A DNA stretch of 52,323 nucleotides from a virus (Duplodnaviria > Heunggongvirae > Uroviricota > Caudoviricetes), in IMG/VR virus record IMGVR_UViG_2563367002_000003. One strand, given 5' to 3'. Below are positions 8,156 through 50,003 of this stretch, piece by piece (position 1 is the first letter of the stretch; each line of letters opens with the position of its first letter). Under the pieces are notes generated by a model. It did no database searches, was not told the origin of the DNA, and saw nothing but the letters and a program-made list of their open reading frames with translations. A program made the position numbers and the translations under genes.

Positions 8156-8992
8156 TTATTTTTTCTTATTCCTGTCGTCTTCTACATGCTTTTCAACAGG
8201 GGAGTCTTTCAAGTGATTGTTTTCCATCATGTAATCTTCAAGCGATTTCAGATAGCTCGCATCCGTCAGAAAAGCCATTGCTAACGGGTAGTCCGTTGCC
8301 TTTAGCATTCCTTCATCACGATCGTTGTCGCTGTCCTCGTGAAGCAGCGAGGAAATCAGTGAAAGCGGGATTTTAATGCCGTTATCTTCTCCCCAGAAGA
8401 TCAGGTCCATCATCGGGATAAGACGATATTCAATAATTTTTCTGAATGTGCTTTTCCCAAAACGATACTCTCTTGGCGCTGGAGACTTCATCTTAAGCTG
8501 TCTCTTCCATCGGGGGATCAACACTTTCAGATGTTCAATGATCTCTTCGGTTGATGCTTCTTCCAGATGAATATCGACAGTAATACGTGAAAGATTATTA
8601 AGGGATGTCTCTTTCAGATACTCGGACAGAAATTCAGACTGGCTTAACCCAGAGAGTTCAGGCGTGGCTTCGGTTAATGCCAGCGTTTTCGCATAAAATT
8701 GCGCGTGGCTTCGTGTCGTAGGATTTACTGCGTAGGTTCTGGCAAGCTCATGTCCAAGAGTAGCGGTATCACCACTGAAAAAGATTTCACCGCTGAGGAT
8801 CTTGTTGCGGTAATCATCCAGCATTAATCGGTTAAAGGTAGGTATGGTGTTCCGGCTCAACAACATTCTGTAAGCCAAGATGCGCCGCTCAACCTCAACA
8901 TAAAAATGCTGTAAGGTGAGTTTCTCTATCGCCTCATAGCGTTCAACATCAAACCATGCTTCCAGTGCTTTCCTGATTTCACTTCTTTTCAT
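8156..8992 (-). CDS. island-associated protein, possibly YfjJ/YagK family
   Basis: 278 aa from ATG at 8992 with GGAGGA SD 4 nt upstream (track start 9049 is TTG); position next to alpA is typical of P4-like islands; family assignment from memory only. Confidence 0.5.
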   Translation of the reverse strand: MKRSEIRKALEAWFDVERYEAIEKLTLQHFYVEVERRILAYRMLLSRNTIPTFNRLMLDDYRNKILSGEIFFSGDTATLGHELARTYAVNPTTRSHAQFYAKTLALTEATPELSGLSQSEFLSEYLKETSLNNLSRITVDIHLEEASTEEIIEHLKVLIPRWKRQLKMKSPAPREYRFGKSTFRKIIEYRLIPMMDLIFWGEDNGIKIPLSLISSLLHEDSDNDRDEGMLKATDYPLAMAFLTDASYLKSLEDYMMENNHLKDSPVEKHVEDDRNKKK

Positions 8993-9270
8993 CCATCCTC
9001 CAACAATCCATTTCCTTTGATATATCTTCACAGGATCCGTTTGGAACAATTGAAGTTCAACTGTTTTGTCATCAGAGACGGGGGAATGGCTAAGTTGTTG
9101 TTAAGAGTGTGAACTCGAGAGCATAAAAGTGGATGCCCGACGCGCGGCAAAATGGTAAAAAACAGCATCAGTAGTAAGAAAAATTGAGCGAGAGAAAGGA
9201 ATTTTAATGCAGGGATTTATGCATGACAAAATCAAAAATGCTTTGTAAGTGATTGATTTTGTTGAATGAT

Positions 9271-16286: not shown

Positions 16287-17365
16287 CAGAACGGGTCCTC
16301 CTGTACTCTGGCTTTTTTCTTTTTCCGCGCGCCGGGGTCTTCGGGTTCAGGCAGATAAGCATCAGGCGGGCCGACACGGATTTCCGTCAGGGTGCCGTTC
16401 TGGTCCTGAGTAAACGTGACTTCCGAGACAAGCAGTTCGGTATTGTCAAAACCACAGACCGGATCAAAGACAATCACCCGCTGGTTGGGCTGCCACAGCG
16501 TACCGTTACCCTGTCGCCAGCCCTGCACCACATAGGTGGTTTCATCCGTCCGCGCCGCCCGTTGTCGGGCTTCAAAGTCAGCACGCGCAATACAGCCTGC
16601 CCCCGTAGCCTGCCCTGTCTGCCTGATATACATCGGACGGTAACGGGCAATAAATGCGTCCTCTGTGCGGGCCCGCAGCGCGGTGGTGGTGGCCTCACCG
16701 AAATCATCGTCGTTTCCGGCACGCTGCCCCGCCACCTGGTAAACAGAAAACCGCTCCCGGATACTCTTCTCCGTATCACAGGAAAGGATATTTTCCCCAA
16801 GTACCAGCGCGGTATGTGCCCGCGTTGAGCCAATACCGCCAATCACCAGCCTGCCGTGCGGGTCGTCGTAAGCCAGTGCCTGCTGCTGACCGAGTATTTT
16901 GTTGATTACCTCAATCACCGTTTCACCGTGATCAGGCTGAACATCAGGAATAACACCCGATGGCGCACCGCTGTTCACCACCTCAATGCCGAAAGGCGCA
17001 GCAAGCGCCTGCGCAATCTGCACCAGCGAGCGTCCGTTAAACTGTGTCGGTTCGGCTGCACAGTCAATCAGGTCAGCCGTCAGACTACGTCCGGCAATAC
17101 CGGTGCTGACCGAACGGGCATCGTAATGAACGGGAGTCGCCTCCACCCAGCCGGTGATCACCAGCTCATCACCAATCAGCACTTCCACTTTTGAACCGTT
17201 TTTAATGCGCGGCTGAAGCGTGGTGATACCCTCATCACCCGGCCACTGGCGGGTGATCTCCACACTGAAATCCCGCGCCAGCCGTTCAATACCGGCACCG
17301 ATGCGCACCGATGTCCAGCCATTCCACTCCCGGCCATTTACCCGTAGCGTGACATTGTCGTTCAT
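16286..17365 (-). CDS. baseplate hub / late-control-D-like tail protein (Mu gp44-like)
   Basis: 359 aa; position between DNA-circulation gene and spike; 1-nt stop/start overlap. Confidence 0.65.
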   Translation of the reverse strand: MNDNVTLRVNGREWNGWTSVRIGAGIERLARDFSVEITRQWPGDEGITTLQPRIKNGSKVEVLIGDELVITGWVEATPVHYDARSVSTGIAGRSLTADLIDCAAEPTQFNGRSLVQIAQALAAPFGIEVVNSGAPSGVIPDVQPDHGETVIEVINKILGQQQALAYDDPHGRLVIGGIGSTRAHTALVLGENILSCDTEKSIRERFSVYQVAGQRAGNDDDFGEATTTALRARTEDAFIARYRPMYIRQTGQATGAGCIARADFEARQRAARTDETTYVVQGWRQGNGTLWQPNQRVIVFDPVCGFDNTELLVSEVTFTQDQNGTLTEIRVGPPDAYLPEPEDPGARKKKKARVQEDPF

Positions 17366-18735
17366 TGCACTGGCACCTTCAGAGGGATCACCGGCACAAA
17401 GCCGGGATGCGTAATGGCATTACGCCGGATAATGTCCGCGTCACGCGCCGCGTTATCAAACCAGGTCGCCGCCAGCACCAGCGCGGGTAAAACCTCATCC
17501 GGTGTGCGCTGAATGATCCGTGCAGACTGTTCAAGGCGCGTGTTGATATCCGCATTCAGATCTGCTTTCACCCGGCGCAGCGCCAGAAACAGCGCATCAC
17601 TGGTTGTACGGGACAACTCCTTATCAATTGCCGTATTCAGTGTGTCGCGAATGTCAGTCAGTTCTTCCCACGTCGGCAGGTCAACCGTGTTTTTCACCGC
17701 CGGTGCATTGTTCAGTGCCGGATGCGTGACGGCAGGCCAGCCAGTGCTCTGCGCGGGTGTTGTTGCCTGCCCCACTGCGGAATTCTGCATCACCGCGGAA
17801 GTTGTTGGCGCAGGCAATCGCGTGACGGCATACGCCGCTTCGCTGATTGCGGTCGTACGAAGGGTGCTGGCAACCACGTTACGCTGCTGCGTAGCCGTGG
17901 CGGTGGTTTTACTGTCCGTTTTCCAGACGCCGCGCGGTTGCAGATCGCTGCCGAGGCTGACACCGGAAAGCGTTTTGATCATGGTGACCAGGTCGCTGGC
18001 GTTACCATAAAGGCGTTTCCCGGTACGCCACATTTTCTGCACCTGCTCAACGAAATTTTTGCCTGACGATGGCGGCGGCAGAAGTACCGAGATATCCCCC
18101 TGCAACAGCCTGGCGGCATCCGATACGGTAGAATCCACCACTTTCATCGCATCAGAAACATACCCCAGCATTATGCTGGCATTACCGATAACGTCGTTCT
18201 GCACGAAATCCGCCACGCCATCGATACTGAAACCGCTGAAGCTGTCACTGATGCAGTCATCCAGTGCAGAACAGGATGACATCAGCGTCTGCGCCGTCGC
18301 CGCACCTGATGTGGGGTAAGAGAGTTCTCCCGCTTCGACAAACTTCAGGTCAAAGCGGACAATACGCCCTTCACTTTTCGATGTGCTGACCCGAACTTCC
18401 CCGTCAACACAGACTTTCATCTCACCGTATGTCGGATGGACAAGCGTGCCGGGACCGGGTTTATTCAGCGCGTCAATCAGGCGATCGCGCTGGTCAAAGC
18501 AGTCATCTCCCACCACATAAGCTGTGATGGACGGGCGGAAAGTGACTTTTCCCAGATCTTCGGTATAAGGCTTGTCGCGGTTCGGGTATTCATGTGTTTC
18601 CACACGGCGACCGGTTCCCGCACTTTCTTCTTCAACCTTAAACGGCACACCTCGAAATGATGCTTCAAGTAGCTTTTCACGCCAGCCACTTCGAGAATTA
18701 GAGGATAGGTACGAAGAAATATGAGAAAAATCCAT
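17362..18735 (-). CDS. phage DNA-circulation protein (Mu gp43 / N-like)
   Basis: 457 aa; ATG at 18735 with GAGGTG SD; position downstream of tape measure in a Mu-type tail module. Confidence 0.65.
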   Translation of the reverse strand: MDFSHISSYLSSNSRSGWREKLLEASFRGVPFKVEEESAGTGRRVETHEYPNRDKPYTEDLGKVTFRPSITAYVVGDDCFDQRDRLIDALNKPGPGTLVHPTYGEMKVCVDGEVRVSTSKSEGRIVRFDLKFVEAGELSYPTSGAATAQTLMSSCSALDDCISDSFSGFSIDGVADFVQNDVIGNASIMLGYVSDAMKVVDSTVSDAARLLQGDISVLLPPPSSGKNFVEQVQKMWRTGKRLYGNASDLVTMIKTLSGVSLGSDLQPRGVWKTDSKTTATATQQRNVVASTLRTTAISEAAYAVTRLPAPTTSAVMQNSAVGQATTPAQSTGWPAVTHPALNNAPAVKNTVDLPTWEELTDIRDTLNTAIDKELSRTTSDALFLALRRVKADLNADINTRLEQSARIIQRTPDEVLPALVLAATWFDNAARDADIIRRNAITHPGFVPVIPLKVPVQ

Positions 18736-18752
18736 GGTGTCACCTCAAATAA

Positions 18753-18778
18753 AAACCGCGTGTAAACGCGGTTTTTTA
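18753..18778 (-). terminator. rho-independent terminator (hairpin flanked by A and T runs, bidirectional in form)
   Basis: aaaaaccgcgtgtaaacgcggtttttt: 6-bp GC-rich stem ACCGCG/CGCGGT with 6-nt loop and T-run; lies immediately downstream of the lipoprotein moron. Confidence 0.6.
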
Positions 18779-18791
18779 TTAGGTAATAAAA

Positions 18792-19280
18792 TTAAAGATC
18801 ATAATCAACATTATGAGTATCTATTCTACATGATGAATAAGTAATTCCGCTTTCACCACTAATATTTACGCCAGCCTTTACCTTCCCTGATTTCGTAACA
18901 TCAACAAAGAATTGCCCTCTTGGCATTTTAAATGCAAAAGAGAAACCAATAATTTCCGAGTCAAAGTTATTTTCATCCTCACTAATTGGTACAATAAAAG
19001 CCAATGGTGCAGATTGTGAGTTATTTTCAAAATCAAAAACACCAATACCTTTATTAAACTCGTAGGATGCTTTTTTTATTAAAAGAGTTCCACTTGCCGA
19101 CTTTGCTGGGCATATTACAGACAGTCTATTTATTCCACCTACATCTAGATCTATATTCTTATCTGCTGAAGTTTTAACGTTATCTATAAAGTATGTAGCA
19201 AGCTGCTTTTCCGTTACTGGCTTCGCAAAGGAGTTTAATGGCAGTCCTGCAGCCAACAACAATATAAACATTTTCTTCAT
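18792..19280 (-). CDS. secreted/lipoprotein-like moron protein of unknown function
   Basis: ATG at 19280 with AGGAGA SD; N-terminal signal peptide MKKMFILLLAAGLPLNSFA; strongly AT-rich gene inserted between tape-measure and DNA-circulation genes; own terminator. Confidence 0.6.
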   Translation of the reverse strand: MKKMFILLLAAGLPLNSFAKPVTEKQLATYFIDNVKTSADKNIDLDVGGINRLSVICPAKSASGTLLIKKASYEFNKGIGVFDFENNSQSAPLAFIVPISEDENNFDSEIIGFSFAFKMPRGQFFVDVTKSGKVKAGVNISGESGITYSSCRIDTHNVDYDL

Positions 19281-19344
19281 ATTCTCTCCTACATTCAGCA
19301 CAAACTTTACCACTCAATAACCCTACTTGATTAAAGTAGGGTTA

Positions 19345-21246
19345 TTATCGCCTGAATGGAGAATACCCCACATCGTGCGTGATTTTCATCAGGGGATCGG
19401 CTTTGCCCGGTACATCAATTATCTTCATGCCTGGCGGAGCATTCTCGAACGTGACTTTCAGTTCGCTGTGCTGTGTCATGGAAGAAGATGGATTCAACAG
19501 CGGAACATTGGGTTTGTACTGACTCAGGCTGGCCTGATACTGCTCGTACTCTTTACGATCAAAAAAAGGCGTCCAGTCTGAAGCCAGAAACAGCCCTTTA
19601 TTATCCAGCCAGTTAACTGTATCTTCAGGAACAACACTTTCCAGAGTATCTTTAACCGGCTCATACATCAGGGTTCCCAGAAAACCATATACCCCGGCCT
19701 TCCCGATAAAGCCGCGGCCTTTCCCCATCAATCCCGTTTCTGCCGACACCTTCCCCAGCGTACGCATCTCTCTGGTCACTGCGGTAATGGATTTGGTAAC
19801 GTCAGCAACCCATTTGGTTGTCATAAACAGGGCGATCGCTTTCAGAACAGTTTCCCATCCCCCCATCGCCTGCGCCGTTTCATCCACCACGCGCCAGACT
19901 TTTTTTATGACAGGACCTACGGTTTCCCAGTTATCAATAATGAGGTAAGCGGCACCGACCAGAAGAGCAATCAGACCCTTAGCAGGCGTCATATTCATCA
20001 CACCGCCGAGAACTTTCATGATTCTGGACAAAGAGCCTGCAGCGGCCCCCACTGTCAGTAAAGCCAGACCGATTTTAGCAATGGTCTTAACGAGCTCCGG
20101 GTTTTCACGGACAAACGTTCTCACTTCCTCAAGGAGCGGTTTTACCGCTTCAAGACCATCATTAACCTCAGGAAGAAACGTTTCCCCCAGAGTGGAAGAA
20201 ATGGCATCAAGTTGATTTTGCAGAAGTAAAAGCTGGTTTTCCGTCGTCGCTGCCCTCGAAGCATATTCCTTCTGCATCGAACTGCCATACTGCTGGGAAT
20301 CCGCAACCCGCCTGAAGTTGGTACGCAACAAATCAAGGTTAGTCAGCAGAGGTGCTATCGCGCCCAGAGACTCTTTCCCGAACAGGGCATTCAGCACAGC
20401 TGCCTGTTTTTCTTTAGGCACTTTAGCCATCGCATCCAGTACAGACAGCATGGTTCCCCGGGCATCTTTCTGCATATCAGCAGCTAATTTCTTCGGATTG
20501 ATCCGCAGAAAACGTAATGCCTGTTTCTGCGATTTTGTCGCTGAATTTCCCGCGGTCAGGGAAAGCATGAAGTTCTTGATCCCTGTGGCGGCAATTTCTG
20601 ACTCCACGCCCATCCCGGCAATGGTTGCCCCCATTGCCGCGATTTCGCCGGAAGCCACACCTGCAACACCACCTAAAGGACCAATACGCGTAACAATATC
20701 GGAGATTTTCTTCGCATTCGCCGGGCCGGTATTACCAAGGTAGTTGATTTTGTCAGCCAGCCCAGCCACTTCATCCTGCGTCATATTAAACGCAGTACGC
20801 CACTGGGCCATCATCTGCCCGGACTCTTCAGCCGTGGTATCAAAGGCCACGCCCATCTTCACCGCATCAGTGGCAAACTGCATCAGTTCATCACGTGCAA
20901 TCCCGGCCTGACCGCCAGCCGCCACAATTTCCGCGATCCCGTCTGCAGACATGGGAAGCTCAGTAGACAAAGCGCGTACCTGCTCCGTCATGGCCTTAAA
21001 CGCATCCGGCGTATCCAGACCGTCCACCACTTTGCGGACATCAGCCATCTTCGATTCAAGGGTGATGGCTGATTTTACAGGGAGTGCCAGTGCCCCCATT
21101 ATTGCAGTACCCGCCCCGGCAGCGCCCAGAGCAAGGCTGGAGACTTCTTTCTGAAACCCCTTAAGCTGACGCTGCATACCTTTAAGCGGGCCGGACAGCC
21201 TGTCAACGGCGGTGATGATGGCTTTCAGCTGAAAATTATCAGCCAT
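19345..21246 (-). CDS. tail tape-measure protein
   Basis: 633 aa, Ala/Gly-rich helical protein with hydrophobic central segments; position after tail assembly chaperone gene. Confidence 0.85.
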   Translation of the reverse strand: MADNFQLKAIITAVDRLSGPLKGMQRQLKGFQKEVSSLALGAAGAGTAIMGALALPVKSAITLESKMADVRKVVDGLDTPDAFKAMTEQVRALSTELPMSADGIAEIVAAGGQAGIARDELMQFATDAVKMGVAFDTTAEESGQMMAQWRTAFNMTQDEVAGLADKINYLGNTGPANAKKISDIVTRIGPLGGVAGVASGEIAAMGATIAGMGVESEIAATGIKNFMLSLTAGNSATKSQKQALRFLRINPKKLAADMQKDARGTMLSVLDAMAKVPKEKQAAVLNALFGKESLGAIAPLLTNLDLLRTNFRRVADSQQYGSSMQKEYASRAATTENQLLLLQNQLDAISSTLGETFLPEVNDGLEAVKPLLEEVRTFVRENPELVKTIAKIGLALLTVGAAAGSLSRIMKVLGGVMNMTPAKGLIALLVGAAYLIIDNWETVGPVIKKVWRVVDETAQAMGGWETVLKAIALFMTTKWVADVTKSITAVTREMRTLGKVSAETGLMGKGRGFIGKAGVYGFLGTLMYEPVKDTLESVVPEDTVNWLDNKGLFLASDWTPFFDRKEYEQYQASLSQYKPNVPLLNPSSSMTQHSELKVTFENAPPGMKIIDVPGKADPLMKITHDVGYSPFRR

Positions 21247-32195: not shown

Positions 32196-32663
32196 TTACT
32201 TCCGACACTGAGTGTCAATATATTCCTGTAACGCTCTCAATGATGCTTGATCTCTGATAATTCCGGATCTGATACCGAGAAGGTTTCGTCCAGCAATTGG
32301 AGAGAGTTCGACGGTGGCATCATTGCCCACGCTGGCGGTGCCGGAGGCTTTTGTTGTGGCTGGCACTGGACATCTGCCTTTGACGAGCACCCTACCACCA
32401 TTATCAAGCTTGCGCCGAAGAGCATCATTTTCAGCTTTCGCATCAGCTAACTCCTTCGTGTATTTAGCATCAAGTGCATCAGCATCACGCTGGCGCTGCT
32501 GCATGTCAGCGATGGTGGCGGTCAGCTGCTTCAGCTCACTGACTTTTTTATCACGCTGTTCTTTGTAGGTGATGGCGTTATCACGGTAATGATTGACCGC
32601 CCACGACAGGCAGACGATGATGCAGATAACCAGAGCATAAATAATCGCGGCGACTCTGCTCAC
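32196..32663 (-). CDS. i-spanin (lambda Rz homologue)
   Basis: close to lambda Rz over the full length ([34 protein letters not shown] ...); GTG start at 32663 overlapping endolysin stop. Confidence 0.8.
32237..32443 (-). CDS. o-spanin (Rz1-like lipoprotein) embedded in the Rz frame
   Basis: 68 aa in +1 frame inside Rz; AAGGAG SD; lipobox VVGC and proline-rich region, as in lambda Rz1. Confidence 0.75.
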
Positions 32664-33193
32664 TGATCTATTCCCCAACAGGCTAATGCGCTTTCTTGGT
32701 CACGACGAATAACCTGTCCATAGCAGTTATTTGAACGTATGCGGCAATCGCGCCCACCATCTTTTATCCACCAGCGAATCGCCTCGCATGCGCCCTTACG
32801 ATCACCAGCATTCAGCCGCTTATAAAACGTCGATGGAAAACACTTACCGGGGCCAATGTTATAGGGACAAAATGACGCGATACCCGCTTTTTGTGGTTCG
32901 GTCAGTGGTACTTTAATATTGCGCTCCACCCATGCCAGCGCCTTATCACGCTCAATGGCGTTGACCTGGTCGCATTTTTCCTTCGACAGTTTCATACCGG
33001 GAAAAACGGGTTTTCCATCCACCATCGTGGCACCCCGACAGATGGTCCAGATGCCGGAACCATCGCGGTATGCCGTTGTGTGGTTACCTTCTTTTTCATC
33101 CAGAAACTGGTCGAGAATATCAGGCGCGGGCGCACCGACGGCAATCAGTGCCAGAACGGCAGCCGACAGGCCGTATCTGATTTTTGCGTTCAT
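32660..33193 (-). CDS. endolysin (phage lysozyme with N-terminal signal-anchor-release segment)
   Basis: 177 aa; N-terminal weakly hydrophobic Gly/Ala-rich segment followed by lysozyme catalytic region. Confidence 0.8.
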
Positions 33194-34728: not shown

Positions 34729-35418
34729 TCAATCTACTTTTGCAACACTTTGCTTTGAAAATGCCGCCTTTTGTTTTGAACGTGTTCTCATTACAAACAA
34801 TAAAGCCTCACTATCCAGTCGTTGAAAAATGTGTTTCATTGCAACCCAGTGACGAGTAAATGTTTTGGACCAGTTTTTAGTTGTCACTCCCGCCAGTAAT
34901 GCCAGCTCCTGGTATTCATAACCTTCCCCACCAAAAAGTTCTGCTTTTACTGCCTGCGCCGCCAGCCAGATTAATTTTTTCAGGCGTTCCTGCGTTTTCC
35001 CTGCAATTTTTCTGGTACCGGATTGAGTATTAAATTCATTCCACGCCCACTGTGTTATCGCGATCTGATATTCCCAACAAATACTCTCGCCGTAACACCA
35101 CAACAACCAGGCTTTATGATGCTCTTCAAGAGACAGCAAAGCCCGCCGCCATGATGATGTCGAAAACTCAACCGGGCTGACCAGGGCAATTGATGAGCCA
35201 TTCGCCAGTGATTGTTTTCCCGGGATTGGTGGATTATCCCGCGTTATCATTTTTCCAGTCACTTCATCGCGGTACCGGATTTTTTTTCGCCTGTAACGCC
35301 CTGTATCGAACATGGCATTCTCCTGCCAGGCTTCAAGCTGACCTTTTGTTGCCCCACTCAAATCAGCGGTGGCGATAATGAGCTGCTCACGCACAAACTG
35401 TAAATACTGGTTATTCAT
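34729..35418 (-). CDS. putative late-gene antiterminator (Q-like) by position
   Basis: 229 aa from ATG at 35418 (GGAG SD; ATGA overlap with rusA stop); last early gene before tRNAs and lysis genes; sequence family not confirmed. Confidence 0.5.
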   Translation of the reverse strand: MNNQYLQFVREQLIIATADLSGATKGQLEAWQENAMFDTGRYRRKKIRYRDEVTGKMITRDNPPIPGKQSLANGSSIALVSPVEFSTSSWRRALLSLEEHHKAWLLWCYGESICWEYQIAITQWAWNEFNTQSGTRKIAGKTQERLKKLIWLAAQAVKAELFGGEGYEYQELALLAGVTTKNWSKTFTRHWVAMKHIFQRLDSEALLFVMRTRSKQKAAFSKQSVAKVD

Positions 35419-35780
35419 GCGCACTCCAGTTCTGTGATTTTTATCCCCAGCCGCCCACCAGGAACGAGCTGACCGCGCACAATATTGATTTCATCAAACT
35501 GCTCGTCGTCTATAAGTAGTCCGGCATGCGTCAGCGCATCCAGTGGTGCCTTCAGGATATTGTCCAGGTCACGACGGCGCTTATCCGGTGGCTCTGCAAT
35601 AATCTTTATCGCCAGCCTTCCGGACAGGTTTAATTTCAGCCGCTGCTGGCGAACAATTAGCGCCACATCACGGCGATAACGCTTTCCGGCCTCCGAGATG
35701 AAATACGTATTGCCATGACGTCGCCAGTAGGTATTCACCGTCGGCGGGTAAGGCAAAACAAATTCTATGCGTTCAGTCAT
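35415..35780 (-). CDS. rusA: Holliday-junction resolvase RusA
   Basis: 121 aa (MTERIEFVLPYPPTVNTYWRR ... RRDLDNILKAPLDAL ...), characteristic RusA motifs. Confidence 0.85.
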   Translation of the reverse strand: MTERIEFVLPYPPTVNTYWRRHGNTYFISEAGKRYRRDVALIVRQQRLKLNLSGRLAIKIIAEPPDKRRRDLDNILKAPLDALTHAGLLIDDEQFDEINIVRGQLVPGGRLGIKITELECA

Positions 35781-37222: not shown

Positions 37223-38368
37223 TTATTTTTGTTTTATGGTAAATGAAATAACATTGTCAGAATGAATCATATCTGATTCTTTAAATCGTGTAATTGCAGA
37301 TAACTCATTTAAAGGAAGAGCAAAGATATCAGTTAACTCAGTTACCTTTATGATTGAATGCTTATCAAGAAGTAAAAGTAACTTATTAAGTAACTCAGGC
37401 TCTTCTTTTGGGATTGCATCATCTAACGGCTCCCTACGATGGAATGGCGCTAATTGCTTAAATATATAGCTTTTCTGATTATCGCTAATTAACTTAAGGC
37501 TATGACTCCTCATGGCAATACTACCGATAGATGTAATCCAACGTAGTTTTAATCGTTCTAACGCTGATAAATTTGGACTATAAAATTCACGCCCGAAAGT
37601 CGTGGCTGGCATTAAAAAGCTGGAGGCAAAATAATCGGCCTGCAACTCCACTAGGTCGAATAATTCTTTATCATTCAGGTAGTCATCCTCCACTGCCCTA
37701 TGCATAATTAAATGGCCAAGTTCATGAGCAAGACTAAATCGCATGCGAACAGCCGTCTTCGAGCTATCTAACATAATTAAAGGCCGCCCATTATGCCAGA
37801 ACGAAAAGGCATCAACTTTCTCACCAGAAGGTAAATGAGAAACCACGATTCCTTTATTTTCAACAAGTCTAGTTAAATTGAGTATTGGACCATCACCTAA
37901 CCCCCAAAAACGCCTTAATTGGGTGGACATATCCTCAATATCAGATAGAGACAGAACCTCAAAATCAATAATATCGAATTCAGGCAGAACCACATCTGGT
38001 AATTGAGCATATTTTAGACATTCATCCAATATTAATGCCGCCCAACGCCCACGTGTTTTCCCTGTAACTCGAGCCTTTTTGGTCGCAGTTGAACGACTTC
38101 TAAAATGAATCGCCCCCTCCAGAGATGGAGAAGCACTGGAGGCTAAGAAAAATCGTTCTGGAAATCCTAACACCTTGGCTATTGCAGAAAGTGTATCAGC
38201 AGAGGGAGACTTCAACCCCTTCTCAAATGACGAAATAGCTTGTCTTGAAATATTGAGCACTCTGGCAAGTTCAGCCATCGTCAACCCTTTTGCCTCTCTT
38301 GCCTCCTCAAGGCGACGAGGATTAAACGATTTATCAGTAAATGGTGTTTGTGCGATATTCATGCTCAT
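37223..38368 (-). CDS. fused HTH-XRE DNA-binding / ImmA-IrrE-type zinc metallopeptidase regulator
   Basis: 381 aa; N-terminal HTH (LTMAELARVLNISRQAISSFEKG); HEXXH motif HELGHLIMH near aa 215; AT-rich; ATGA overlap with upstream gene. Confidence 0.75.
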   Translation of the reverse strand: MSMNIAQTPFTDKSFNPRRLEEAREAKGLTMAELARVLNISRQAISSFEKGLKSPSADTLSAIAKVLGFPERFFLASSASPSLEGAIHFRSRSTATKKARVTGKTRGRWAALILDECLKYAQLPDVVLPEFDIIDFEVLSLSDIEDMSTQLRRFWGLGDGPILNLTRLVENKGIVVSHLPSGEKVDAFSFWHNGRPLIMLDSSKTAVRMRFSLAHELGHLIMHRAVEDDYLNDKELFDLVELQADYFASSFLMPATTFGREFYSPNLSALERLKLRWITSIGSIAMRSHSLKLISDNQKSYIFKQLAPFHRREPLDDAIPKEEPELLNKLLLLLDKHSIIKVTELTDIFALPLNELSAITRFKESDMIHSDNVISFTIKQK

Positions 38369-38979
38369 GATTGCTGTGATTTAATTATTTGTTCGGTAAG
38401 AATCTTGATTTTATCTTCAATCTCAGAATCCACATTTTCTGCTTCAACTTCTACCATCGTCATAATTGGTAAAGACTCAGTATAAAGAATCCCGTAATTA
38501 TCCGAAGAAGGAACAGTTAAATTCAGTTTGGACAAGTGCTGATTACTGCCATCATGTAACATATAAACATGTCCACCAGACGCTCTCCCATCCAGGGAGT
38601 CGGCATTTTCATCCCCAAAATTCAATTCATAATTTTGATTAGCGTAAACAGCTCTATACAATGCCTGCTTAGGAAGTGGCGCATTACCCGATAAATGATG
38701 TGCCGTCATTTTCCAGTTGTTCGAGTGAATCGCAATGTGTTTACAATTTTTAGCAGCATTGCTACCGACTTCAAAATCCAGCCCCACACGCTTAGCCGCA
38801 TTCTCAAGCAATGCATCGGCATAAAACCAGCGCAAATATGACTGTGCTTGAGCCCAAAAAGAACCAAACTCTTTTGCCTTCATATGCGAATGAAGATAAG
38901 CCTGTGCTAACGCGATCGAAAGCTCTTTGCGGCACTCCTTGTCATATGCTTCTAACAACTGTTGAGATAAATTCTGCAT
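38365..38979 (-). CDS. hypothetical protein, upstream partner of the HTH-ImmA gene
   Basis: 204 aa; AAGGA upstream of ATG at 38979; AT-rich; no family recognised. Confidence 0.6.
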   Translation of the reverse strand: MQNLSQQLLEAYDKECRKELSIALAQAYLHSHMKAKEFGSFWAQAQSYLRWFYADALLENAAKRVGLDFEVGSNAAKNCKHIAIHSNNWKMTAHHLSGNAPLPKQALYRAVYANQNYELNFGDENADSLDGRASGGHVYMLHDGSNQHLSKLNLTVPSSDNYGILYTESLPIMTMVEVEAENVDSEIEDKIKILTEQIIKSQQS

Positions 38980-39578: not shown

Positions 39579-42377
39579 TCAGGCACCGTGACATTTTTTG
39601 TACTTTATTCCCGAGCCACAGGGGCATTGTTCATTCCGGCCGACCGCACCAAAAACTTCAGTTAATTTAGTCTTTGCTGCTTTATGGGCAAGCTGTACGA
39701 TGTAATTTGATTGATTTTGGATTTCTTGACGCTGTACACCTGTGAGGCCTTCGATATAGGGAGCAAGGCGCTGCATTTCGACATCAGCTGCTTTATGCTG
39801 ACCCGATAGTGCCAATATGACTGCGTACTGGCTTCGAACCTGAATCAGTCGGTGTACTAGACCTGCCTCATTGACAACCGGCAGGACATGTTGCTCCATG
39901 ACTTCCTTGGCACCGTCGTAATCCTTTATGGCAACAAACTCATCCGCCAGATCTTGGCCCACCCTAACCATGGATTCCGGGGCCATGGCCAGATTGTAGA
40001 ACTTCATCGAATGAATACGCAGTAATGGTGACAGTTTTCCCTGCGCATCACGAATTCTGGCCAGCAACTCCAGAGCATCAGCCATATGTTTAAAGTGTTC
40101 CTGCATATTTTCGGAATGATTAATAGTTTTCCATAATGCGTCGGCGTTTTTTCCTATGACATCAGCAGGTGTGATACCAAATAAAGAATAGTACCCTTGT
40201 ATAACATTACAGCTTAATGTTTCAGCATCCTTGAGTTTTTTTAATCTCCAGAGTGCAATGGCATGGTTGTAGTCAAAGATGCGTTTATGTTCTTCATCTG
40301 GGAGTTGGGGGCGGACTTCCTGTGCCAGCTTTTGAACTTCTCGTGCATCATTGCTTTCTGCCGAAAATAACATTCGTTTCATTGCATAGGCCATCTCTTC
40401 TTGATAGCCGAACTTGTGCTCCGCAAGTAAAGCTCCCATGATGTTTAACCTCTGAGCAATGTGGTCGGATATTCCGTCTTTAAGCTCAACGAAAACAAGG
40501 CCATCCAATGCCCAGAATTTATGAACAGGTCCCAATAAGTCCGATGTTGCAGCACGCTCCAAGCTTGCAAGAATGTCGACCGTCACGCCCATCTCATAAA
40601 ACATTTCTTGGCCTGAGAGTTCGATCAACGTCGTGACATCATTGAGCTTAATATAAAGTTGAGTCAACAACGATAACCGTTTTGTATTGCGGGTATTATG
40701 AAGACTTTCAACTAAAAGGTCTTTCAGCGCTAGTAGCGCTTTGTTCGATATACCCTGATCCATCAGTTCCAGATGTTGCAGTCCTAGCCCCCTGACAGCA
40801 TCATGTACCTTCAGGGTCTGGTTTCCATAAATTTCAATAGTGCCAGTAGCGCGCATTTTCCTAATTAAAGAAGCCGCACTGCTTGGTGAAATGTTCAGCG
40901 AATTGATTAGGAGCGTAGAAATCTCTTCGCGACTCAGCCCTACGTCAGAGAGACTGAACAATGCCAGCGCGCTCTGAAGTAGTGATTCAAATCCCTGAAA
41001 TACACGTGACAGAATAATTTCTTGGGCGGTTTCCGCAGTATGGGTTTGTTGCTGGAGTTCAGCACACAGAGCATCGACACTACGCTCATAATCAGAAACG
41101 GCGATTTTTGCGGCGCTCTCTACATACAGGGGAAGACCACCAGTGTAAGCCCGTAGCTGCTCGTATCCCATAGCGGTGGCAAATCCTCCGATATCGTTTA
41201 CAACGACAGCTACCGTATCGAGATTCCATCCCTGCAGGCCCTCGCGCTGTAGCCCCGTCATGACCTCCAGTTCGCGAACGTTTTCGTGAGGCTGGCACAA
41301 CAGCACAAAACGAATATGTGTAGTTGCATTCAGAACATCCCGTAGATTTTCCGCAGGTACACGATGGGCGTTATCCAGAACCAGCACCAAGGTGGTACCC
41401 TGCTCTTTCAGGTAGGTATCAAAACTCCTAAGAGCCTCAAAACCACTGGCACCGGGGAGCAAAATCCTGCGCAAACCGTCTTGGTCACGGGCTGTAAATC
41501 TAGCAGCCATCTCGCGCACCAGCGTACTGGCCAGAGCTGGACCGGGAAGATCACCGGTGTCGTAATAAGCACAAAGTGCAGTGGAGTGTAATGCGGCCTG
41601 TGCGGCCCAAGCTGTCTTGCCTGCACCTGAGAGTCCACAAAGGATACGGATCCGCTCACCAGATGTGAGAGAAGGTTCTTCGTTTTGTGGGCGGTACAGT
41701 GCTGGTGGTGCAGGAAAGTCCTGTAGCTGAACGATCAACTGTTCAAATAGTTCAGTAAGTTCCTCCGTGAAAAACGTATGTTGTCCATTGGTATCGCCTC
41801 CGGTGGCGGCAAGCTGAACCAACCCTGCTAACTTCCAAATCAAGGATTCTGGGGACAATAGTGAAAATTTCAGCTTTTCTGCTTCTGCGATACACCATGT
41901 GGCCGCATCAGCCAGAGTACTCCATGCGGGCGGAAGTGCCGGATGACGTCCAGCTGTCGACTGGGGCCAGACAATAAGAACATCAGAAGGAAGCTTTTTA
42001 TCGTCAATCATCTTCTGAAGCAGCGGTCCAGGCGCCTGGTTTACAATAATCACAAAAGAAGCCACCCCTTCGCGGTTTGCCGAAGTATGCTCATTTCTGA
42101 GCTTTACAAATCGCTCCAGAGCCCCCGACACATCGTTGGGCATAATAGGCTTTGAACGGGTTTTAACCTGAATGTAGAGACGTTCCTGTTTGGATTTCAG
42201 CTCAATATCCTCATCAAGCTCGACAGTTACTGAGTCCATAGCAGCCCTCTGCGCCAAAAGTAAGCAGCCTACAGCGTAAAGATGCTGGTAAAGGAACCCC
42301 CGGTGTACCGCTTCGATACGCACCAACTGCACAGGATCCAGTACGTCCAGATTTTGTTTGTTTTCACTTCCCCACAT
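39579..42377 (-). CDS. STAND-like P-loop NTPase, three-part architecture with C-terminal SEC-C zinc motif; candidate antiviral (Avs-like) protein
   Basis: 932 aa; AAGGA SD 8 nt before ATG at 42377; Walker A GLSGAGKT and Walker B-like LVLVLDNAH; N-terminal ~200 aa with D..E.K-like pattern (VELDEDIELK ... YIQVKT); long helical C-terminal region; ends CPCGSGIKYKKCHGA. Confidence 0.7.
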   Translation of the reverse strand: MWGSENKQNLDVLDPVQLVRIEAVHRGFLYQHLYAVGCLLLAQRAAMDSVTVELDEDIELKSKQERLYIQVKTRSKPIMPNDVSGALERFVKLRNEHTSANREGVASFVIIVNQAPGPLLQKMIDDKKLPSDVLIVWPQSTAGRHPALPPAWSTLADAATWCIAEAEKLKFSLLSPESLIWKLAGLVQLAATGGDTNGQHTFFTEELTELFEQLIVQLQDFPAPPALYRPQNEEPSLTSGERIRILCGLSGAGKTAWAAQAALHSTALCAYYDTGDLPGPALASTLVREMAARFTARDQDGLRRILLPGASGFEALRSFDTYLKEQGTTLVLVLDNAHRVPAENLRDVLNATTHIRFVLLCQPHENVRELEVMTGLQREGLQGWNLDTVAVVVNDIGGFATAMGYEQLRAYTGGLPLYVESAAKIAVSDYERSVDALCAELQQQTHTAETAQEIILSRVFQGFESLLQSALALFSLSDVGLSREEISTLLINSLNISPSSAASLIRKMRATGTIEIYGNQTLKVHDAVRGLGLQHLELMDQGISNKALLALKDLLVESLHNTRNTKRLSLLTQLYIKLNDVTTLIELSGQEMFYEMGVTVDILASLERAATSDLLGPVHKFWALDGLVFVELKDGISDHIAQRLNIMGALLAEHKFGYQEEMAYAMKRMLFSAESNDAREVQKLAQEVRPQLPDEEHKRIFDYNHAIALWRLKKLKDAETLSCNVIQGYYSLFGITPADVIGKNADALWKTINHSENMQEHFKHMADALELLARIRDAQGKLSPLLRIHSMKFYNLAMAPESMVRVGQDLADEFVAIKDYDGAKEVMEQHVLPVVNEAGLVHRLIQVRSQYAVILALSGQHKAADVEMQRLAPYIEGLTGVQRQEIQNQSNYIVQLAHKAAKTKLTEVFGAVGRNEQCPCGSGIKYKKCHGA

Positions 42378-47561: not shown

Positions 47562-50003
47562 ATGAGCACTGATAAAGAAGAATTTGCACTATATTGCGAA
47601 GCAAAAAATGACAAAGTAAGAAAACGCCTGGGAATTAAAGGTGGTTTTTACTGGACTACAGCAAAAAAATTATCTGTTGCAATCTCCCGCTGCATTACCG
47701 CAATGGATGACAACGATTATGATGAAGACGACTTTAAAAAACCCGTCCGCGTCAATTTGCCCGTTGTTGACGACCTTCCGCCAGAAGGCGTGTTTGATAC
47801 TGAATTCTGCAACCGCTATGAAAAAGGCGGGAAAGATGGCATCACAATGACATTTATCGGCCCTTCCCCCTCTGTTCAGGACAAACCAGCCAGCACTGAC
47901 AATACCAACATCAACGGCGAAGACATGACTGAGATTGAGGAGAGCATGCTTCTGCCTGTCTCCGGTCAGGAACTGCCCATTCGTTGGCTTGCTCAACACG
48001 GCAGCGAAAAACCAGTAACGCACGTTTCACGCGACGAACTCCAGGCATTACACATTGCACGGGCTGAAGAACTACCGGCTGTTACTGCCCTGGCTATTTC
48101 GCATAAAACCAGTCTGCTCGACTCGCTGGAGATTCGCGACCTCCACAAACTGGTTCGTGACACTGACAAAGTTTTCCCTAATCCTGGTAATTCAGACCTG
48201 GGACTAATAACTGCTTTTTTCGAAGCATACCTGGACGCTGACTACACTGATCGGGGTCTGCTGACAAAAGAGTGGATGAAAGGAAATCGTGTTTCACGCA
48301 TCACCCGCACGGCTTCCGGTGCTAATGCTGGCGGTGGGAACAAAACCGATCGCAATCCGAATTTAGTACACACCCTCGACACACTGGATGTGGAGATTGC
48401 AGCAGCCACACTTCCGATGGATTTTAATATTTATGAAATTCCGGGCAGCGTTTATCGTCGCGCAAAAGAAGTAGTCCTGAACAAAGAAAGTCCGTTCAAA
48501 GAATGGTCCGCAGCACTTCGTGCAACCCCGGGTATTCTGGACTATTCCCGCGCCGCTATTTTTGCACTTATCCGAAGCGCACACCCTGAATTTTATCACT
48601 ACCCGGGACGCCTTCAGGGGTATATCAACGCCTATTTGACGGAAACTGATCACGAGAACCCCAGCAAGGAAACTCTCACAGCTGCCCGGCATACGCCGGA
48701 AAAAGATATCCTGGAAGAAATTAACCGCGAGGTGGTTACTGAGCGTGAAACAGAAGAAGAAAAACCACAACCATCTGACGCAATGGCAGGTGAACAGGCA
48801 ACAACTGAAACAATGGAACCGGATACAACTGAACATGGCCAGAACGCGCAGTCGCTGGATGCTCAGTCGCAGGTGAGTTCCGCTAACCAAGTAAAAGTCA
48901 CCGCTGACGAAGCAAACAAAATTATGCAGGCAGCCAATATCAGCCAGCCTGACGCCGATAAGTTACTTGCTGTATCGCGTGGTGAATTTGTTGAGGGGAT
49001 TAGCGACCCTAATGATCCGAAATGGGTCAAGGGGATCCAGACTCGCGATTCTGTGAACCAGAACCAGCATGAATCGGAACGGAACGACCAAAAAGCGGAA
49101 CAAAACAGCCCAAATGCGTTACAAAACGAGCCAGAAACGAAACAATCCGAACCAGTAGCGCAACAGGAACCGGAAAAAGTCTGCACCGCCTGCGGTCAGA
49201 GCGGTGGCGGCAACTGCCCTGATTGTGGCGCGGTGATGGGCGACGCAACATACCAGGAAACATTCGATGAAGAGAATCAGGTTGAAGTTCAGGAAAATGA
49301 TCCGGAGGAAATGGAAGGCGCTGAACATCCACACAAGGAGAACCCTGGCGGCAATCAGCATCACGCCAGCGATAATAAAACTGGCGAGACGGCAGATCAC
49401 TCAATTAAGGTGAACGGTCATCACGAAATCACATCCACCAGCAGGACGTGTGACCATCTAATGATCGACCTTGAAACCATGGGAAAAAATCCTGATGCCC
49501 CGATCATCTCAATAGGTGCAATATTTTTCGATCCGCAAACCGGAGATATGGGACCGGAATTTAGTAAGACTATCGATCTGGAAACTGCTGGCGGAGTCAT
49601 TGATCGGGACACCATTAAATGGTGGCTTAAGCAATCACGCGAAGCGCAATCTGCCATTATGACCGATGAAATCCCGTTAGATGATGCACTGTTACAATTG
49701 CGGGAATTTATCGACGAAAACTCCGGTGAATTTTTTGTTCAGGTCTGGGGAAATGGAGCCAACTTCGACAACACGATTTTGCGCCGTTCATACGAACGGC
49801 AGGGGATCCCCTGCCCGTGGCGTTACTACAACGATCGCGATGTACGCACAATCGTTGAGCTGGGGAAAGCCATAGACTTCGATGCCAGAACGGCTATTCC
49901 ATTCGAAGGTGAGCGACATAATGCACTTGATGACGCTCGTTACCAGGCAAAATACGTTTCAGCTATCTGGCAAAAACTGATCCCGAGTCAGGCTGATTTT
50001 TAA
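47562..50003 (+). CDS. large multidomain phage protein with C-terminal DEDDh-type 3'-5' exonuclease domain (YdfE-like N-terminus)
   Basis: 813 aa; C-terminal ~180 aa has DnaQ-like motifs ([19 protein letters not shown]); CxxC-N9-CxxC zinc ribbon ([16 protein letters not shown]); long acidic low-complexity linker. Confidence 0.7.

Follow-up and report, generated by a model that had tools for sequence, protein, structure and literature searches.

A probable dispensable cargo gene for an exported protein at the tape-measure/N junction of an SfV-type prophage, with a possible role in superinfection exclusion

Phage T5 encodes Llp, an exported protein of its late/tail region that brings about envelope conversion or exclusion; Ltp of phage TP-J34 is an exclusion protein that sits outside the cytoplasmic membrane and targets the tape measure of an incoming phage; and Spackle of phage T4 inhibits the tail lysozyme of an incoming phage, again from outside the membrane. 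Here we describe a gene in a 52,323-nucleotide stretch of tailed-phage DNA (Caudoviricetes; IMG/VR record IMGVR_UViG_2563367002_000003), the whole of which is called the window below. The gene lies between the genes for the tail tape-measure protein (TMP) and a DNA-circulation/baseplate-hub protein (N), and we consider it very probable that it is a dispensable cargo gene of SfV-type prophages whose product is exported. A comparison offers itself with gp15 of HK97, a superinfection-exclusion moron located beside the tape-measure gene, the specificity of which maps to the tail (PMC3594210).

HK97 gp15 was the first moron to be described. The cargo gene resembles it as a small, compositionally deviant, extra gene of the tail operon that adjoins the TMP gene and is absent from close relatives. 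Both products are located in the envelope, by prediction in the case of the cargo protein, and exclusion by gp15 has a specificity that depends on the incoming tail (PMC3594210). The two differ in that gp15 is a small inner-membrane YebO-like protein encoded upstream of TMP, whereas the cargo product is a 143-aa predicted soluble periplasmic barrel encoded downstream of it; there is no sequence relation between them, and expression of gp15 from the prophage has been shown. Likewise comparable are bor and lom of lambda and Cor of phi80 and N15, which are exported, encoded among late genes, and alter the surface or block entry (PMC3594210). However, Bor, Cor and Llp are lipoproteins and Lom is an outer-membrane barrel, while the cargo protein lacks a lipobox, membrane-barrel features and homology to any of them. 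Ltp and Spackle illustrate the mechanism that we favour, in which a tail component is intercepted during DNA injection, but Ltp is a Gram-positive lipoprotein with helical repeats and Spackle is helical, and the structure searches made with the cargo protein revealed no relation to either in sequence or fold.

The cargo gene and the two genes that flank it are placed as follows.

18792-19280, minus strand: cargo coding sequence, 162 aa plus stop (open reading frame list, PHROG 5586 match, PGAP call and homologues)
19286-19290, minus strand: Shine-Dalgarno sequence AGGAG, 5 nt 5′ of the cargo ATG (read from the sequence)
19345-21246, minus strand: TMP, 633 aa, upstream of the cargo gene (PF10145, E 2e-42; PHROG 28)
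17362-18735, minus strand: N, a Mu gp43/N-like DNA-circulation/baseplate-hub protein, 457 aa, downstream of the cargo gene (PF07157, E 2.5e-34; PHROG 184)

The product of the open reading frame begins with MKKMFILLLAAGLPLNSFA, the next residues being KPV, and the same 489-nt coding sequence is called by NCBI PGAP in identical E. coli prophages. An alternative GTG start would lengthen the frame to position 19313; the ATG at 19280 is preferred, as it has the ribosome-binding site and the NCBI pipeline annotation. A first-pass annotation, made from the DNA sequence by itself, had described a 162-aa protein with a good Shine-Dalgarno sequence, placed between tape-measure and DNA-circulation genes and far more AT-rich than these, and in all of this it was correct: the families PF10145 and PF07157 flank the gene, and its GC content is 34% against 52-55% in the neighbours. 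In full, the GC content and the GC content at third codon positions (GC3) are 0.342 and 0.245 for the cargo gene, 0.519 and 0.543 for TMP, and 0.553 and 0.587 for N. The gene forms the sole dip below 0.40 GC in the profile of 14-24 kb, and a low GC content relative to the flanks was also seen in the loci L006 and L007 and in six further lineages. The odd composition and the lack of an annotated function might be taken to mean that the frame is spurious, a chance product of an AT-rich spacer. This reading is already refuted because the frame is conserved in homologues that are 39-97% identical, among which indels are in-frame; the strong Shine-Dalgarno sequence, the full-length PHROG match and the confident fold prediction described below also speak against it, and we give it practically no credence.

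The gene is optional within its own setting. In SfIV, the TMP and N of which are 99 and 95% identical to those of the window, just 24 nt separate the two genes and no cargo is present; SfIV is a functional phage isolate (PMC3851460). The gene is also missing from SfV, SfII and 689R6. Among 5426 complete E. coli genomes the N allele was found in 1094, the TMP allele in 215 and the cargo gene in 101, i.e., about half of the genomes with the same TMP allele are without the cargo gene (101 vs 215), and the two TMP-positive, cargo-negative genomes inspected (E. coli GF3-3 and ET846) have an SfIV-type empty junction with the 24-nt gap. Identical copies of the cargo module occur in chromosomes of E. 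coli ST131, with 100% identity in many ST131 clinical genomes; other carriers include animal, water and environmental E. coli as well as elements of Salmonella, Shigella, Erwinia and Pantoea. In one locus (L039:4054-5001) an IS1 element with InsA and InsB open reading frames breaks the 5′ end of a homologue of the 48%-identical type and removes its signal peptide, so that the cargo has been lost there independently. Of the homologues for which context is available, the two most distant reside on phage-plasmid-like contigs beside IncFII RepA, MazEF, ParA and a CI-like repressor, and not beside tail genes. A separate observation concerns a 431-nt contig (L012; NZ_SDSC01000039.1, coverage 0.8) assigned to 'Macrococcus sp.', which is 97-100% identical to the TMP end plus cargo start of the E. 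coli phage; in a Gram-positive assembly this contig is almost certainly contamination.

In the 35 IMG/VR loci and three genomes collected with a search from a 4-sequence alignment (the 16-sequence alignment has no conserved stretch), the family member was always found between TMP and N of an SfV-type tail. The same position can hold other genes. Phage SKA5 (OR670062; L053:3082-3594, minus strand) carries a different gene in its TMP-N slot, with 31% GC and a product of 164-170 aa that has two cysteines and a signal peptide (MRIFVFFISALLSFNLAA, cleaved before EE) and belongs to PHROG 8976, to which no function is assigned; this gene is followed by a hairpin and T-run. Thus it is like the cargo gene in being exported, AT-rich, located in the TMP-N slot and followed by a terminator, but it is unrelated in sequence, and no homology between PHROG 8976 and PHROG 5586, the family of the cargo protein, was detectable (hhalign probability 0.7%). 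In addition, a 195-aa HIRAN-domain protein is encoded between the TMP gene and the distant family member P0019 in L055:2387-2974. Given the slot gene of SKA5 and the HIRAN contig, the TMP-N junction is a recurrent cargo position that favours exported proteins.

Export of the cargo protein is indicated by its N terminus.

19224-19280, minus strand: Sec signal peptide, residues 1-19, MKK/MFILLLAAGLPL/NSFA with cleavage before K, no lipobox Cys (read from the sequence and from the family layout)

The same n-h-c layout is found in all family members and ends in A-x-A/K or A-x-A/N; the cleavage motif of the cargo protein, SFA/KP, is of the signal-peptidase-I type, and nearly all relatives have A-x-A/K. 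There is no cysteine before residue 57 of the cargo protein, and its signal peptide does not end in a lipobox, [LVI][ASTVI][GAS]C; a lipobox-like LTSC occurs only in the 48%-identical Shigella allele, where it adjoins a canonical AQA/K site. The first-pass annotation had been right to propose a signal peptide, but its designation of the product as a lipoprotein is rejected, as the first cysteine is residue 57 and the lipobox check was negative. The mature protein comprises 143 aa (15.6 kDa, pI 5.1) with no membrane or other hydrophobic segment, and would be soluble in the periplasm. Its two cysteines, C57 and C151, are conserved throughout the family. We infer that they lie near the first and the last strands of the predicted barrel and hence, in the oxidising periplasm, form a C57-C151 disulfide that ties these strands together and closes the barrel.

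A cleavable Sec signal peptide would export the protein from the cytoplasm, where tails are assembled, and this bears on the reading of the gene as a structural or assembly part of the Mu-like tail, e.g., an accessory to TMP or the baseplate. That the gene keeps to the same place between TMP and N across at least eight divergent lineages would suit such a part. However, it is lacking in viable phages and in about half of the prophages whose TMP is 99% identical, homologues exist outside tail operons, and profile searches revealed no homology of the cargo protein to any structural-protein family, so that the search for a structural tail relative which had been named as a check on the first-pass annotation came back empty. 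The structural reading is rejected as close to refuted, and we regard it as very improbable. The view of that annotation that the gene is a moron rather than a tail part gains from the same absence in SfIV, SfV and SfII, the homologues outside tail operons and the unrelated gene in the SKA5 slot.

The cargo protein matches PHROG 5586 with E 2.1e-82, its residues 1-161 aligning with profile positions 1-161, and all 16 aligned relatives match this family, which has no assigned function. The family is tiny: when 1.84 billion representative proteins were searched exhaustively with HMMER, no more than 17 matched. Full-length members have about 150-175 aa, each with a signal peptide and two cysteines, and vB_EcoM-720R4 is the only sequenced phage isolate that carries one; literature searches under the protein accession and the name of phage 720R4 turned up no paper. 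Pfam and NCBIfam gave no match for any of the 16 aligned members even at E up to 10, the HMMs of PADLOC-DB gave none at E up to 1 for the cargo protein or its 48%-identical homologue, and a sequence search of the PDB with the cargo protein gave none either. The structure was predicted with AlphaFold2 from the 16-sequence alignment (a 3-sequence alignment gave an unusable pLDDT of 41). The resulting model is confident (pLDDT 85.3, pTM 0.79) and shows a helix at residues 24-41 and then eight beta-strands, which predicts a fold with an N-terminal helix packed on an eight-stranded up-and-down beta-barrel. Foldseek comparison of the model with the PDB gave Brucella PhiA as the best match at E 0.04, and comparison with a viral library a best E of 0.012, neither of which is significant; all structure-search matches were generic eight-stranded up-and-down barrels. 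The model points to a fold class (calycin/streptavidin/PliC-like barrel) and not to a family. Scores against MliC/PliC and Brucella PhiA were insignificant and equal to those against avidins, MoaF-like proteins and designed barrels, and the cargo protein differs from MliC/PliC and PhiA in its extra N-terminal helix and about 50 additional residues. None of the 16 family members matched the MliC/PliC sequence profiles of Pfam and NCBIfam; as judged from profiles, the cargo protein belongs to neither MliC/PliC nor any PADLOC defence family.

An exported barrel of this predicted class could also act on a target unrelated to phages, as an inhibitor of animal lysozyme or a binder of a small ligand, and benefit extraintestinal pathogenic E. 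coli (ExPEC) such as ST131 as a host-fitness or virulence factor. The calycin/PliC-like model and the 100%-identical copies in many ST131 clinical genomes are in keeping with this, and envelope morons in a late region are already known from lambda, namely bor and lom (PMC3594210). On the other hand, the structural likeness is generic only, there is no sequence match to MliC/PliC/Ivy-type families, and the gene also turns up in the non-clinical E. coli (animal, water, environmental) and the elements of four other genera named above. We judge a host-fitness role unlikely.

Two hairpins border the cargo gene.

18747-18777, minus strand: intrinsic terminator, 11-bp stem (5 G-C pairs) and 4-6 nt loop, then UUUUUAUUU (folding)
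19315-19347, minus strand: 14-bp hairpin overlapping the TMP stop codon, no U-tract (dG -19.6 kcal/mol, z -4.0)

The terminator has the sequence AAAAAACCGCG-TTTACA-CGCGGTTTTT followed by ATTT, and lies between the cargo stop codon and the ribosome-binding site of N, directly upstream of the N Shine-Dalgarno sequence GAGGTG (18741-18746). It has a dG of -20.4 kcal/mol and a z of -6.3, and none of 200 shuffled sequences was equally stable. A consensus terminator scan did not pick up this hairpin, probably because the A/T-extended stem absorbs the T-run, and an Rfam scan of 18300-19700 gave sub-threshold matches only, which fell on it. The terminator is intact at 24 of the 25 close loci, and every divergent lineage has a hairpin and T-run with a different stem (GCCGCCA/TGGCGG, CCCAC/GTGGG, CCCGC/GCGGG and CCCCGCC/GGCGGG). 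Its retention across lineages with differing stem sequences argues that it is maintained by selection. The upstream 14-bp hairpin has its left arm broken at 16 of 26 close loci and is missing from divergent lineages; on these grounds it was set aside as a regulatory or recombination element, and it is probably not functional but incidental. In an IMG/VR prophage remnant (L016:4583-5001) a deletion, the junction of which sits in the loop of the 14-bp hairpin, has left the Rz lysis gene and the cargo gene directly joined, with cargo, terminator and baseplate genes kept.

Morons, as defined by Juhala and Hendrix and summarised in PMC3594210, are extra DNA that is missing between the same two genes in close relatives, differs from its neighbours in GC content and has a promoter and a terminator of its own; expression in the lysogen is a further defining property (PMC3594210). 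At the present locus the extra DNA is missing from close relatives as described, the GC content is 0.342 against 0.52-0.55, and a terminator follows the gene, with the caveat that cargo-free SfV and SfII have terminators too. The gene works like a classical moron, with three of five defining features present.

Comparison with SfIV and SfV showed that more than the gene itself is variable.

18645-19352, minus strand: AT-rich variable module relative to the SfIV type, running from the last 2-3 codons of TMP through hairpin, cargo gene and terminator into N, of which it takes in the first ~27 codons (SfIV/SfV alignments)

The first ~27 codons of N (18645-18735, minus strand) are AT-rich, and residues 1-27 of the protein are unlike those of SfIV (MDFSHISSYLSSNSRSGW vs MDLSSFPTRPSLLSSSSGW), so that the N terminus of the hub protein is part of the variable module; SfV-type N proteins are without the N-terminal extension and start M-T-W-K-D-R-L. 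The SfIV junction ACGCAGTCCTTTTTGAGGTCA aligns to the 3′ half-stem and T-run of the window terminator, ACGCGGTTTTTATTTGAGGTGA. Although short, this alignment suggests that the empty SfIV-type junction arose by deletion, with the terminator retained in its 3′ half. A recent simple insertion of the gene was judged unlikely, given that its synonymous divergence (dS) equals that of the flanks, that the module runs about 90 nt into N, and that the SfIV junction matches the terminator 3′ half. The gene had been described beforehand as inserted in the tail operon. It is indeed an optional extra gene there; a plain insertion falls short as a description, as the gene is old at the slot, with a dS like that of its flanks, and the empty SfIV junction looks like the product of a deletion.

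Together, these data led us to a working model in which the gene is a dispensable, moron-type gene at the recurrent TMP-N cargo slot of SfV-type prophages. The model makes use of one further feature.

34729-35424, minus strand: lambda-type Q antiterminator, upstream of the late operon (PF06323, E 2.3e-91)

With Q present and the late operon all on one strand, the analogy with lambda leads us to expect that in the lytic cycle the Q-modified late transcript reads through the terminator behind the cargo gene, and the baseplate genes would still be made. In the lysogen, any transcript entering the AT-rich module or initiated within it would end at this terminator. The protein would most likely bind or block something in the cell envelope, and our leading guess, itself a tentative one and by analogy, is superinfection exclusion at the stage of DNA entry: the protein may intercept the periplasm-exposed TMP or hub of an incoming Mu-type tail, or a host factor that this needs. 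Exclusion is favoured because the protein is predicted to be exported and the gene is cargo, because the gene is persistently linked to that for TMP, a component that crosses the periplasm at injection, and because the HK97 gp15 moron, also beside a TMP gene, excludes phages in a tail-dependent manner. The suggestion of the first-pass annotation that such a gene may serve exclusion or serum resistance is plausible, purely by analogy. Taken as a whole, the explanation as cargo that is exported and perhaps acts in exclusion falls somewhat short of an even chance. A bolder and rather doubtful extension would see in PHROG 5586 the first family of a new kind of exclusion protein, soluble and periplasmic, which is genetically locked to the TMP of Mu/SfV-type contractile tails and catches the TMP or hub of an incoming phage in the periplasm; the TMP-N junction would then be a dedicated swap slot for such exported proteins (PHROG 5586, PHROG 8976).

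Several observations weigh against this explanation. SfV (L003:2900-2935) and SfII (L052:3001-3039), although free of cargo, carry CCCAC-TCCG-GTGGG and a T-run directly before N, and the SfII record annotates the TMP-N hairpin as a rho-independent terminator. The terminator may thus belong to the junction or tail operon, or be a relic of lost cargo, and not be strictly the gene's own; in SfV and SfII a mid-operon terminator may tune the dosage of baseplate genes or be such a relic. Of the earlier statement that the gene has its own strong terminator, the strength stands (z -6.3), whereas the ownership is put in doubt by the homologous hairpin of the cargo-free phages. A sigma-70 scan of the minus strand over 17-22 kb found no site, and a relaxed promoter scan of the 300 nt upstream in seven lineages reached no more than 7-8 of 12 consensus matches, with sites about as dense as background. 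In the window, the best promoter-like site is TAATCA-18-TAAAGT preceded by TG. It may be that the cargo gene is expressed with the late operon and not otherwise. Cargo alleles are 39-54% identical where the flanks are 53-72% (TMP) and 52-71% (N) identical, and as cargo identity falls alongside flank identity, the cargo has diverged in place with the tail module; so long a residence could also mean that the gene serves the lytic cycle of its own phage, in a role that is conserved but optional. Among close alleles dS is about 0.02-0.06 and equal for TMP, cargo and N, and the ratio of nonsynonymous to synonymous divergence (dN/dS, omega) is 0.2-1.2 for the cargo gene, 0.02-0.16 for TMP and 0.15-0.26 for N, values that derive from fewer than 15 substitutions per pair and from non-independent pairs. 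This faster evolution of the cargo at equal dS, with a nonsynonymous divergence several-fold that of the flanks, counts in favour of the explanation, being as expected of an accessory or arms-race protein.

These points bear on a second reading, in which the product is a late-expressed periplasmic helper of the phage's own cycle, transcribed along with the tail genes under the Q-dependent late promoter, with export just ahead of lysis. It might mask receptors or envelope debris and so save progeny, or tune peptidoglycan hydrolysis and lysis timing as a PliC/PhiA-like inhibitor. The want of a convincing promoter of its own, the position on the same strand with tight spacing within the late operon, and the long residence at the slot with co-divergence of the flanks all agree with a helper. 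Against it, the fold matches are not significant and no better than those to avidins or designed barrels, Pfam holds no MliC/PliC match, the phage-plasmid-like homologues sit in a maintenance/immunity region and not among late genes, and half of the near-identical prophages lack the gene. We consider the helper role rather unlikely.

If the protein does block phage entry from the periplasm, it would be a structurally new exclusion factor, i.e., a soluble beta-barrel and not a membrane protein or lipoprotein. The cargo gene is present in about 2% of complete E. coli genomes, many ST131 clinical strains among them, and under the same premise might matter when therapeutic phages are chosen; in SfV-type prophages, the TMP-N junction would moreover be a useful place to seek more exported conversion genes. 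At present the gene is a well-delimited, functionally uncharacterised example of a well-known phenomenon: moron cargo is familiar, the protein family is not.

As for the wider setting, the window contains an E. coli prophage of the SfV/SfIV/SfII type, which combines an HK97-like head and a Mu-like contractile tail with lambdoid regulation. Q is followed on the same strand by genes for holin, lysozyme, Rz and morphogenesis, the lysozyme being encoded at 32660-33193, and a CI-like repressor and an integrase are also encoded in the window. The early region encodes a 932-aa protein (39579-42377, minus strand) in which AAA ATPase domains are combined with a Cap4-nuclease-like domain at the N terminus and a SEC-C motif at the C terminus; its gene is a candidate for anti-phage defence. 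A gene pair at 37223-38979 (minus strand), coding for a 204-aa protein with no Pfam match and then a 381-aa protein with HTH_3 and Peptidase_M78 (IrrE-like) domains, may serve the prophage as a module for regulation or defence. Beyond the tail-fibre genes a DUF6387 protein is encoded (8156-9049, minus strand), and near the integrase lies a gene (47562-50003, plus strand) for an 813-aa RecE-like exonuclease VIII fused to an Rv2179c-like 3′-5′ exoribonuclease domain.

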